The notes under the pieces are model-generated. The model was given only the letters and a program-made list of their open reading frames with translations. It was not told where the DNA came from and did no database searches. Positions 4,413 to 53,429 of a stretch of DNA of 64,000 nt are shown one piece after another. The first letter of the stretch is position 1. Every line of letters begins with the position of its first letter. Source of the stretch: a virus; IMG/VR virus record IMGVR_UViG_3300010885_077086, positions 16,776 to 80,775 of that record, one strand, 5' to 3'. Both the position numbers and the translations under genes were made by a program.

Positions 4413-4685
4413 TTAGTGAGCTGCGGTTGAGCTTGAGCTGGAAGTGCTGCTGCTTGACTGAGTTGCTGGTGCAGTGGTTACAGTTGAGGTGGTTCCAGCG
4501 GTGCTCTCAGTTGTAGAGGTTACTACTGAGGTAGCTGCTGCTGCATCAGTGGTTACTGTTGCCTCGGTGGTTACTGCAGTTGTCTCAGTTGAAGTTGGTG
4601 TGGTTGCAGCCTCAGTTGCGGCTGGAGCCTCTACCTTCTCTGCTGTTGAGCAAGCAAGTAGTGCAGATAGTACTAATGTTAACAT
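4413..4685 (-). CDS. Thr/Ala/Ser-rich low-complexity lipoprotein
   Basis: MLTLVLSALLA-C lipobox after AGGAG RBS; mucin-like tail. Confidence 0.75.
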   Translation of the reverse strand: MLTLVLSALLACSTAEKVEAPAATEAATTPTSTETTAVTTEATVTTDAAAATSVVTSTTESTAGTTSTVTTAPATQSSSSTSSSSSTAAH

Positions 4686-4778
4686 TTTAACTCCTATTTG
4701 TCGTTTAAATCGCTGCAACGATGAATTTCGTTGGGCAGCATAATAATACCCTTGTCGAGTAATACTGTCTAAAAATTC

Positions 4779-44304: not shown

Positions 44305-44505
44305 CTACCTTGTAGTTCCAACTCTTCCAATCTTTCCATCAGAAAGAATCTTTTTTATATCCTTTCCAAGATCTTCCACTCCAGCTCGAAACGGTTCTAT
44401 AAAAACGAACGCGGCTGCAACGATTGCAATAACAATTACTGAGATTAGTAGCATATATTCTACGGTGGATTGACCCTCTTCGTCTTTTAAAAGCTCTTTT
44501 AACAT
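44305..44505 (-). CDS. Flp/Fap-type (Tad) pilin
   Basis: Class III signal peptide DEEG|QSTVEY + hydrophobic helix; 66 aa. Confidence 0.85.
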   Translation of the reverse strand: MLKELLKDEEGQSTVEYMLLISVIVIAIVAAAFVFIEPFRAGVEDLGKDIKKILSDGKIGRVGTTR

Positions 44506-44762
44506 TATTTTATCTCATCAACAGACTGATCAATCTCTGGATTCCAGTCAGTTCTCAATTTGATGAGAGGATTAAAGTTTGCCTTCTTTCTCTCTAAGAC
44601 AAGCTGTGACTGCGGCTTCTGAAGAACGCCTTCTATCTCTAGCTCTTCAAAGTCAATCTCAGTTTTATTTTTATAAACTATTTTTGCTTCACCATCTTCG
44701 GCAGCATGAGCAGCATGTGGCGGAAGAAGGATTAGGGATAAAATTAAAGCTTTTCTTAGCAT
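44505..44762 (-). CDS. cglF: Adventurous gliding motility protein CglF/GltF-like secreted protein
   Basis: Signal peptide then VYKNKTEIDFEELEIEGVLQKP...RKKANFNPLIKLRTDWNPEI.QS, matching my recollection of the myxobacterial CglF family. Confidence 0.75.
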   Translation of the reverse strand: MLRKALILSLILLPPHAAHAAEDGEAKIVYKNKTEIDFEELEIEGVLQKPQSQLVLERKKANFNPLIKLRTDWNPEIDQSVDEIK

Positions 44763-44795
44763 TGAGCCTCCAGCAATATATAAATATATTACCAG

Positions 44796-45161
44796 CTACT
44801 CCTTGCTAGACTCTAGCCAATTTTCAATGTCTTCATCTGACATTGTTTGAAGCTGCTCAATTGTAAGAGAGTTAAGATCTCTCTTTCCGTCCCAAGGAGC
44901 CTTTTCATAAGGCCCATCAATATCAAAAATGGGATACTTCATACAATCTCTCAATATTCTTTCTAGATCCAGCTTTAGACCGTCTTTAACAGCCTCCTCT
45001 GTATCTCCCTCCTCAGCATCAGCATAAGATTCAACAGGCTCTTTGGTGCAAGAATGTGGAGCAAGAGGATCTTTATCATAATAAAGCTCTCCAACACCAT
45101 AAAATCTATGCTCTGGTTTTAGTTTATTTCTGTATCTTACAATTCCATAACGCCAACGCAT
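44796..45161 (-). CDS. Conserved phage hypothetical protein
   Basis: M.WRY.IV...YGV.ELYYD pattern; GGAGG RBS. Confidence 0.7.
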   Translation of the reverse strand: MRWRYGIVRYRNKLKPEHRFYGVGELYYDKDPLAPHSCTKEPVESYADAEEGDTEEAVKDGLKLDLERILRDCMKYPIFDIDGPYEKAPWDGKRDLNSLTIEQLQTMSDEDIENWLESSKE

Positions 45162-52154: not shown

Positions 52155-53429
52155 TCACCAAGATCCCATTAAAATATCTGGAATATCAAATCCACCGCTT
52201 TCGTTCTGGTAAAGCTCCATTATTGCCGCAACACATCTTCCTACTGCAAGACCAGATGCGTTAAGAGTATGAAGGAACTCATTCTTTCCAGATGAAGATT
52301 TATACTTAAGATTCGCACGACGAGCCTGAAAATCCCAAAATAGAGTTGCAGAGGAAATCTCTCGATAGGCTCCCTGTCCAGCCATCCAAACCTCAATGTC
52401 ATATCCCTTGTAACCGCCAAAGCCAAGGTCTGCGGTACAACGCTCAATTACTCGATATGGCAGGCCAAGAGCCTGTAATACTGACTCAGCATCAGCAGTA
52501 ATCTTTTCAAGCTCTGCCAAAGAATCAGATGGGTTACAGAAAGATACAAGCTCTACCTTATGAAACTGATGAAGTCTAATTAGACCCTTAATGTCTCGAC
52601 CAGCTGATCCTGCCTCTGCTCTAAAGCAAGGAGTAAATGCAGCATGACGAATTGGAAGTGAATCTTCTGGCAGAATAACATCACGATATAGGTTTGTAAC
52701 AGGAACTTCTGCGGTTGGAATTAGAAATGCATCTTCTCCACCCAACTTTGCAGTTACTTTGAATAGATCCTCTTCAAACTTTGGAAGCTGACCTGTTCCA
52801 GTCATTGTTGTGCGAGTTACAATGTAAGGTACTGCAACCTCAGTATAGCCTCTTGCGGTATGCCAATCAAGAAAAAAGTTTGTTAAGCGACGATCTAGCT
52901 TTGCTGCATCGCCCTTCATAACCATAAATCTTGAGCCAGAAAGCTTTGCTCCATCCTCTCCAGATAGAGTTCCTGTATTCTCTCCAATCTGATCGTGAGT
53001 TAAGGCTTTCTTTACAGCAAGATGATCTCCCCAAGACCTTACTACAGGATTGTCAGAGTCGCCCTCTCCATCTGGTGTTGAATCAGATGGAATATTTGGG
53101 ATGTGGAGTAGTAGCTCCTCTTCTTTTTCTTGAAAGTGAGAAAGAGAAGCTTCTAAATTTTGAATTCTATGCTTAAGATCTGATAGCGATGACTGCTCAG
53201 AAGCTCTTTCTTCTGGAGAAAGTCCTTTTGCCTTAAGTCCAAACTCTTTACTTCTTACATTCATTTCTGCTCTAAATTTATCTAGAATAGATTGAGTATC
53301 TTTTCTAGATCTAATTAGTATTCCAATCTCAGAAAGATATGTGGCAATTTCTTCGTTGTTGCCAACCTTTCTCTTTATTTTTGCTACCGTTGCATCGTAG
53401 TCTTTTGTAAATAGATTTTTATCTAACAT
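52155..53429 (-). CDS. serS: Seryl-tRNA synthetase
   Basis: N-terminal coiled coil, IPNIP, GTGQLPKFEEDLF, LIPTAEVP, CFRAEAGS.GRD.KGLIRLHQF.KVE, YREISS, HTLNASGLAVGR. Confidence 0.96.
   Translation of the reverse strand: MLDKNLFTKDYDATVAKIKRKVGNNEEIATYLSEIGILIRSRKDTQSILDKFRAEMNVRSKEFGLKAKGLSPEERASEQSSLSDLKHRIQNLEASLSHFQEKEEELLLHIPNIPSDSTPDGEGDSDNPVVRSWGDHLAVKKALTHDQIGENTGTLSGEDGAKLSGSRFMVMKGDAAKLDRRLTNFFLDWHTARGYTEVAVPYIVTRTTMTGTGQLPKFEEDLFKVTAKLGGEDAFLIPTAEVPVTNLYRDVILPEDSLPIRHAAFTPCFRAEAGSAGRDIKGLIRLHQFHKVELVSFCNPSDSLAELEKITADAESVLQALGLPYRVIERCTADLGFGGYKGYDIEVWMAGQGAYREISSATLFWDFQARRANLKYKSSSGKNEFLHTLNASGLAVGRCVAAIMELYQNESGGFDIPDILMGSW

Follow-up and report, generated by a model that had tools for sequence, protein, structure and literature searches.

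Arrangement of gltF and flp

The window is the whole stretch of DNA that was analysed (64,000 nucleotides), and consists of bases 16776-80775 of the IMG/VR virus record IMGVR_UViG_3300010885_077086 (80,775 bases). Two short genes are located next to each other on the minus strand of the window. The upstream gene encodes a homologue of the gliding motility protein GltF (CglF), and the downstream gene encodes a protein that fits a Flp-type prepilin. The features of this locus are as follows.

44767..44771 (-), Shine-Dalgarno sequence GGAGG, 4 nt before the ATG of gltF
44505..44762 (-), gltF (cglF) homologue, 85 aa, open reading frame with a match to NF033764
44703..44762 (-), predicted type I signal peptide of GltF, residues 1-20, read from the translation
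44503..44507 (-), TAATG junction, with the gltF stop codon at 44507..44505 and the flp start codon at 44505..44503
44305..44505 (-), Flp-type prepilin, 66 aa, open reading frame with the G/QSTVEY motif
44473..44505 (-), putative leader peptide of Flp, residues 1-11 ending in Gly, assigned by the G/XXXXEY rule

The sequence across the junction is GAT GAG ATA AAA TAATG TTA AAA, in which the stop codon of gltF and the ATG of flp share the base at 44505. The overlap of these codons, which had been noticed in the preliminary description of this DNA, is thus confirmed as an overlap of one base. A ribosome-binding site comparable to the GGAGG of gltF is not found before flp. The one-base overlap and the lack of a comparable ribosome-binding site suggest that translation of flp is coupled to that of gltF. 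A scan for promoters and terminators around the pair gives nothing usefully above the shuffled background.

The flp gene is found in 17 IMG/VR contigs, nine of which carry gltF within 5 kb. It is located downstream of gltF, with overlapping or abutting codons, in the window, L025, L026 and L030/L031, and directly upstream of gltF in L034. The distance between the two genes is 0.5, 2.3 and 4.7 kb in L032, L028/L029 and L033, respectively. Eight contigs contain flp without gltF (at most 10 kb on each side were examined, and several contigs end sooner), and five records, one of which is 96% complete, contain gltF without flp. The variation in order, spacing and single occurrence indicates that gltF and flp are frequent companions, not an obligate unit.

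Identification of GltF

The 85-aa protein matches the NCBIfam model NF033764 (gliding_CglF) at model positions 9-88 of 88, with an E-value of 3.6e-16. Its score of 59 bits is lower than the curated equivalog cut-off of 90 bits for this model. A cellular orthologue (L003), which is 56% identical to phage GltF and is encoded between GltE and GltG, scores 57.6 bits and is also under the cut-off. The cut-off is reached only by Myxococcaceae-like genomes (91.2 bits for G189), suggesting that it separates the close relatives of M. xanthus and not the wider family. In G189, phage GltF matches the very copy that passes the cut-off. G189, G504, G340, G280 and G310 each contain at least two paralogues, and in all five the copy that phage GltF resembles most also has the highest CglF score. 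Phage GltF is nearer to the GltF copy in genomes where a second, Nfs-like paralogue is also present. GltF has a paralogue, NfsF, in the Nfs machine for sporulation. Phage GltF shows about 34% identity to the Myxococcaceae-type copy and 54-69% identity to the copies of the probable host order. Neither Pfam nor PHROGs provides a family for this protein, and a sequence-profile search of the PDB with it gives nothing meaningful. Metagenomic protein relatives of the phage genes are found at 70-95% identity.

The predicted signal peptide of phage GltF consists of a basic RK, the hydrophobic stretch ALILSLILL and A-H-A before the cleavage site, as read from the translation. The 85-aa protein contains neither a second hydrophobic stretch nor a Cys residue, and it is therefore not a lipoprotein. 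The AlphaFold2 model of the GltF monomer is of low confidence (pLDDT 59), with helices at residues 51-61 and 65-83. This low confidence is in line with the predicted model of the gliding machine, in which GltF is largely disordered (PMC11761067). In the same predicted model, GltG contacts a strand of GltF through its TonB-like C-terminal domain, and a groove of GltC receives the C-terminal helix of GltF, so that GltF bridges GltC, GltD and GltG (PMC11761067). GltC belongs to the outer-membrane side of the machine, and GltG/GltD are anchored in the inner membrane.

GltF of M. xanthus, which is identical to CglF (PMC4488436), is MXAN_4868, a protein of 89 aa with a signal peptide and without a membrane helix (PMC3169522). 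Individual glt mutations abolish gliding of M. xanthus, and GltF is essential for it; GltF sits at focal adhesions, the localisation of GltD depends on GltF, and processing of a GltF fusion was seen by Luciano et al. (PMC3169522). Phage GltF resembles this protein in its length class (85 vs 89 aa), its N-terminal signal peptide and its lack of a membrane helix, and shares with it the conserved blocks TEIDFE, FNPL and the acidic C-terminal helix. In addition, the cellular relatives of phage gltF are flanked by gltE and gltG, like the M. xanthus gene. Unlike M. xanthus GltF, the phage proteins of the window's clade have the clade-specific changes of E46 to V/I and F73 to W, and the other 10+ Glt/Agl genes of the M. 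xanthus system are all absent from the phage record. The full-length match to the CglF model and the glt synteny of the cellular relatives bear out the initial recognition of the gene: the 85-aa protein is a member of the GltF/CglF family, and is predicted from its sequence to be an exported periplasmic linker.

Identification of Flp

The N-terminus of the 66-aa protein is MLKELLKDEEG/QSTVEY, followed by MLLISVIVIAIVAAAFVFI, a stretch of about 20 hydrophobic residues. The putative cleavage site follows the G/XXXXEY rule described for Flp prepilins (PMC12075869). The protein matches Flp1_like with an E-value of 0.0027 (17.5 bits, as against a gathering cut-off of 33.5), Flp_Fap with an E-value of 0.024 (14.8 bits, as against a gathering cut-off of 32.2), Class_IIIsignal with an E-value of 0.019, and DUF4244; all of these matches are sub-threshold. 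These four related Pfam families match one N-terminal stretch of the protein. PHROGs provides no family for it. More than 550 metagenomic relatives are found, the best 120 of which are 85-94% identical to it, and many among these 120 have been named 'Flp pilus assembly pilin Flp' by JGI. The prepilin cleavage motif is invariant in 18 aligned relatives; in this alignment, GQSTVEYM.LISV and the greater part of the helix do not vary.

The alignment-based AlphaFold2 model of Flp is all-helical, with a mean pLDDT of 80.1 and helices at residues 2-34 and 36-55. A Foldseek search of the PDB with this model gives no match, VIA-align detects only generic long helices and coiled coils (Z about 6), and a search of the PDB with the sequence profile gives nothing meaningful. 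The protein resembles the Flp/Fap pilins of Tad (type IVc) systems in its Gly-ending leader, its G/XXXXEY motif, its hydrophobic alpha1N segment, its size of 66 aa and its predicted all-helical shape. Unlike the Tad Flp/Fap systems, the phage record lacks genes for a prepilin peptidase, an ATPase and a platform protein. By motif, size and predicted shape the 66-aa protein fits a Flp-type pilin, with scores below the family HMM cut-offs. Its assignment as a Flp pilin thus stands as regards motif, size and predicted fold, but not as regards the Pfam scores, including that for Flp_Fap.

Gene content of the phage record

The record of 80.8 kb is about 40% complete according to CheckV, which suggests a genome size near 200 kb. 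The GC content of the phage is 38%, and it is even along the window (31-43%). The record contains phage-like genes, such as those for a T4 RnlA-like RNA ligase, a DNA ligase, HNH endonucleases and an endolysin domain. The genes assigned around the gltF/flp pair and elsewhere in the record are as follows.

Adjoining the gltF/flp pair, T4 RnlA-type RNA ligase, HNH endonuclease and thioredoxin
52155..53429 (-) of the window, seryl-tRNA synthetase, phrog_16140, 448 bits
L075:4525-5355, upstream of the window, DHH phosphoesterase
L075:5366-6424 (G000:C1), upstream of the window, PurZ-like enzyme, phrog_1211, E 4e-63
L075:9684-11300, upstream of the window, full-length GroEL, phrog_5725, E 2e-146

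A SpoU methylase is also encoded among the early or nucleic-acid genes around the pair. The genes for the PurZ-like enzyme, GroEL and the DHH phosphoesterase are all located within the 16.8 kb of the record that precede the window. The seryl-tRNA synthetase is 46% identical to the product of a gene annotated as serS in Acinetobacter phage MD-2021a. The window contains no tRNA genes, and typical bacterial chromosomal genes are not found among the open reading frames scanned. A capsid or terminase gene is not found on the record, which is about 40% complete.

Among the related records that carry gltF are a 203-kb genome, which is complete and has terminal repeats, a 289-kb record that is 96% complete and contains a terminase gene, and a 132-kb record from the window's own GltF clade, in which a terminase gene is also present. 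L025 is syntenic with the window and closely related to it, its proteins being about 90% identical. The contig is viral and comes from a giant phage of the virulent type, with a genome of about 200 kb; its origin from a virus, which had been assumed at the outset, is borne out by the IMG/VR record, the phage genes and the complete genomes of related phages.

As a separate observation, the PurZ-like enzyme raises the possibility that the phage genome may contain 2-aminoadenine (Z-base). Such a genome might bear on how a phage with a GC content of 38% lives in a host with a GC content of roughly 70%.

Cellular and viral gltF genes

When one genome is scanned for each GTDB species, 23 gltF loci are found, and a scan of IMG/VR gives 26. 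GltG adjoins gltF at all 22 cellular loci (61-70% GC), and GltC, GltD and GltE are also encoded at these loci wherever the contig reaches far enough. The order at L003, for example, is GltC, a long TPR protein at the position of GltD, GltE, CglF and GltG. At the viral loci (37-57% GC), GltC, GltD, GltE or GltG is found beside gltF in none of 26 cases. The remaining locus of the genome scan, L002, is an 8.9-kb contig (JBBAUR010000108.1) from a metagenome-assembled genome (MAG) labelled Bdellovibrionota. It has no glt neighbours and carries MazG-like and phosphoesterase genes and small open reading frames on the same strand. L002 is probably a phage contig that has been mis-binned into a bacterial MAG.

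Five contigs of 61-70% GC (L005, L011, L016, L023 and L024) are titled as MAGs of Klebsiella pneumoniae, Enterobacteriaceae or Enterobacterales. All of them carry myxobacterial-type glt genes beside gltF, and the three long ones carry the full set GltC-D-E-F-G. The organism names of these records are evidently wrong.

In the maximum likelihood tree of 52 distinct mature GltF sequences (59 columns), viral and cellular sequences are separated by a single virus/cell change, with a branch support of 73/44 and agreement of 76% of the bootstrap trees. This split is weakly supported because the alignment has only 59 columns. GltF of the window belongs to a viral clade of 13 rows, with a support of 95/90. 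The phage copies retain nearly all columns that do not vary among the cellular sequences, TEIDFE, FNPL and the C-terminal helix among them. Position 46 is Val or Ile in the window's clade, in contrast to Glu in all 29 cellular GltF sequences, and V48 to Q, F73 to W and M77 to I are further substitutions in this clade. From the sequences, the changes at E46 and F73 could mark an altered, even inhibitory, interface.

Cellular relatives of flp

The cellular orthologue of flp adjoins an aldehyde dehydrogenase gene at 14 of 18 loci, often together with a metallophosphoesterase gene. These loci are the following three and 11 further ones.

L059:5082-7165, cellular aldehyde dehydrogenase-flp locus
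L060:9958-11862, cellular aldehyde dehydrogenase-flp locus
L061:7755-10454, cellular aldehyde dehydrogenase-flp locus

The order of aldehyde dehydrogenase, orphan flp and, in part, metallophosphoesterase is conserved across one order of Myxococcota. Tad genes are not found beside the cellular flp orthologue at its loci. Five genomes of the probable host clade contain two or three CpaB/RcpC (Tad) loci each, and a more divergent Flp paralogue is encoded at each of these loci.

The viral Flp copies group with the copy of genome G002 in one clade of the Flp tree (87/99), and the G002 copy is nested inside this clade. G002 Flp is 86% identical to phage Flp. The flp gene of G002 is native, as indicated by its conserved cellular locus and its GC3 of 0.95.

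The gene for KilP, the major Kil pilin of M. xanthus, is mxan_5121, which lies in neither of the two kil clusters (PMC12075869). The cellular flp orthologues resemble kilP in that they are encoded away from the genes of the Tad machinery. A search of five Myxococcaceae-like genomes with the Flp profile gives no match at E <= 0.01; this profile is narrow (88% mean identity) and could miss distant relatives. A link to the Kil pilins of Myxococcus, and orthology with KilP, KilK or KilO, thus find no support in this search.

Sequence constraint and base composition

In pairs of phage copies with unsaturated synonymous change, dN/dS ranges from 0.04 to 0.08 (gltF) and from 0.03 to 0.06 (flp). Most pairs are saturated at synonymous sites, with protein identity still at 70-94%. 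All 56 positions of the mature region of Flp are under strong constraint. Between divergent phages, GltF and Flp are the best-conserved proteins of the neighbourhood. The GC3 values of gltF and flp in the window are 0.33 and 0.27, respectively, and those of the phage's own genes are 0.26-0.39. This phage-like composition indicates that both genes have long resided in a phage genome of low GC content. These results indicate that gltF and flp are host-derived auxiliary genes that have long been kept under purifying selection.

A different composition is observed for the flp gene of another phage (L076:10001-10198; 40% GC), which has a GC3 of 0.75 and is not adapted to the composition of that phage. 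This value suggests that the gene was gained recently from a high-GC genome, and provides an independent link of low-GC giant phages to high-GC hosts.

Probable host

The nearest cellular relatives of the phage genes are from one order of a Myxococcota-type phylum, with genomes of 61-73% GC. Of the 401 genomes sampled from the phylum of G002, 160 contain a match to phage GltF, with an identity of at most 69% over the mature part. The phage-type Flp is found in 23 of these 401 genomes, all of which also contain GltF matches. These 23 genomes include the ones with the highest identity to phage GltF, and the GTDB order of G002 accounts for at least 15 of the 23. Since G002 Flp is native and is nested with the viral copies, a G002-like lineage is the best candidate for the donor and the host. 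Judging from these relationships, the phage most likely infects an uncultured bacterium of high GC content from one order of Myxococcota.

When 20 kb of phage DNA is searched against 154 genomes of the candidate order, no CRISPR-spacer-like match is found; apart from weak homology at the gene level, the same search yields one chance match of 24 nt. This result and the large gap in GC content between the phage (38%) and the proposed host (61-73%) are points against the explanation favoured below. A host from Bdellovibrionota was also considered. Among 124 genomes of the phylum of the MAG that contains L002, only its own phage-like contig L002 is matched, and this candidate was rejected. The sequence relationships therefore agree with the Myxococcota-type affinity that had been proposed for the genes but not with a Bdellovibrionota affinity, and the suggestion of a Bdellovibrio host falls with the phage-like, probably mis-binned contig, the only match in that phylum.

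Possible functions of the gene products

Homologues of GltC, GltD, GltE and GltG are not found anywhere in the 80.8-kb record, which is a fragment, and neither are TraA and TraB. Prepilin peptidase (PF01478) and secretion ATPase (PF00437) also give no match in the record, and the controls are matched. Lack of any other Glt or Tad part in the record indicates that both products must use the host machinery. The location of phage gltF outside any glt cluster is as expected for a captured gene.

The mechanism that we propose is as follows. A phage lineage would have taken up two small host genes long ago and kept them. The gltF and flp genes would be transcribed together, and Flp would probably be translated by coupling to gltF. 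GltF would then be exported through the Sec machinery and signal peptidase I of the host, and Flp, as the polymerising subunit of a Tad/Kil-like pilus, would be handled by the prepilin peptidase and the Tad machine of the host. The subunits made by the virus would enter the host machines during infection, and would keep these machines running or re-tune them. Both proteins are small parts, which may be needed in quantity or may be short-lived. Pilin is consumed as the filament grows. The machine that receives GltF may have a role other than gliding, as relatives of the Glt-type cluster include the Nfs sporulation machine, which performs another job at the envelope. That authentic subunits made by the phage supply or re-tune the host machines in this way has about an even chance of being the correct explanation. 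Host-type export signals, constraint over the whole length and the near-native sequence of Flp favour it, and conservation of nearly all cell-invariant columns of GltF favours a working subunit over a decoy. These features point to export, incorporation and support, rather than block, as the probable direction of the effect.

The proposed mechanism resembles that of psbA (D1) of cyanophages, in that a phage of the virulent type carries one part of a host machine and obtains the rest from the host. Cyanophage psbA replaces a labile host subunit. It is, however, a gene of energy metabolism, whereas the targets of gltF and flp would be envelope machines for motility and for pilus formation.

As an extension of the supply reading, the giant phages may keep running or re-tune the surface machines of an infected predator, an uncultured aquatic myxobacterium, and thereby steer its movement, and possibly its predation, in favour of a long replication cycle. 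Gliding and the Kil pilus of Myxococcus act jointly in contact-dependent killing of prey. We regard this extension as tentative and rather doubtful.

A decoy or dominant-negative function of the two products is somewhat unlikely. According to this explanation, GltF still binds one partner, GltC or GltG/GltD, yet the machine is uncoupled, and Flp poisons or caps a Tad/Kil-like pilus, so that the infected cell stops moving or loses the receptor of other phages (superinfection exclusion). The radical replacement of the cell-invariant Glu46 by Val/Ile and the changes of Val48 to Gln and of Phe73 to Trp in the window's clade, the separate clade formed by viral GltF and the lack of partner genes in this record are consistent with such a function. 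Glu46 is, however, kept in 4 of 10 rows of the other viral GltF clades, and the cell-invariant positions are mostly kept across both predicted interaction elements; one interface would suffice for a decoy. For Flp, the 86% identity to native G002 Flp, the nesting of the two in the tree and the strong constraint on 56 of 56 mature positions argue against a poison. A precedent for interference is Aqs1 of phage DMS3, which is reported to disable type IV filaments of the host to exclude competitors (PMC13060843). The present case would resemble Aqs1 and Tip as a phage interaction with a surface filament of the host, but these two are inhibitors unrelated to pilus subunits, whereas the phage of the window carries the subunit itself.

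It is improbable that the two products have new, phage-specific roles unrelated to host machines. In such roles GltF might serve in lysis or DNA entry as an anchor or adaptor in the periplasm, and the Flp-like helix might be a small membrane protein that acts like a holin, antiholin or spanin, or as an exclusion factor. The pair is located among early or nucleic-acid genes with no other envelope genes beside it, small hydrophobic phage proteins are often involved in lysis control, and gltF and flp are independent of each other in many phages, all of which would suit such roles. But the full host-type sequence, the prepilin motif and the conserved residues of GltF are kept, which is unexpected without host partners, and neither protein matches a lysis family of PHROGs.

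That the genes are recent functionless passengers, or that the contig is cellular or an inactive prophage island, is very improbable: the GC3 of L076 flp shows that fresh uptake occurs, and the record is incomplete without a capsid or terminase gene found, but this explanation is largely refuted by the adaptation of the window's copies to phage composition, their dN/dS of 0.03-0.08, the spread over 26 (gltF) and 17 (flp) viral contigs of 37-57% GC, the separation of viral GltF from all cellular copies in the tree, the syntenic relative L025, the complete phages among the related records, and the lack of tRNA genes in the window and of typical chromosomal genes among the scanned open reading frames.

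Significance

A full-text literature search gives no published description of a phage-borne gltF or of this Flp. A 2026 preprint on myxobacterial viruses discusses auxiliary genes that modify the cell surface, and gltF and flp are not among them. No relative of either protein is found among the sequenced isolate phages in GenBank (INPHARED). The initial impression that no phage module of this kind has been described is thus in agreement with both the literature and the isolate genomes.

Host-derived auxiliary genes of phages are mostly metabolic. Each of those described here encodes one small structural subunit of an envelope-spanning machine, which transmits gliding-type force in one case and forms a Tad-type pilus in the other, and both genes have long been kept in many giant aquatic phages. 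If their products enter the host machines, a virus would directly control how a bacterial predator moves, adheres or preys. If they also steer the infected cell, they would represent a new class of auxiliary genes that control behaviour. The two genes may serve as a practical host marker that connects one uncultured order of Myxococcota with a widespread group of giant phages. In addition, the viral GltF variants provide a natural mutational scan of a linker, the interactions of which are known only from structure prediction.

Other small open reading frames

Two further small open reading frames of the window are as follows.

4413..4718 (-), 101 aa, with a lipoprotein-type signal (LSALLAC/S)
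44796..45161 (-), 121 aa, acidic, just upstream of gltF

The mature part of the 101-aa protein starts with a region rich in Ala, Thr, Pro and Glu. No Pfam family is found for this protein, and a simple hydrophobicity screen identifies it as the only other clearly exported small protein in the record. The 121-aa protein gives a weak match to phrog_21321. Its relatives in L025 (86% identity) and L027 (52% identity) are likewise encoded just upstream of gltF, and this acidic open reading frame may travel with gltF.
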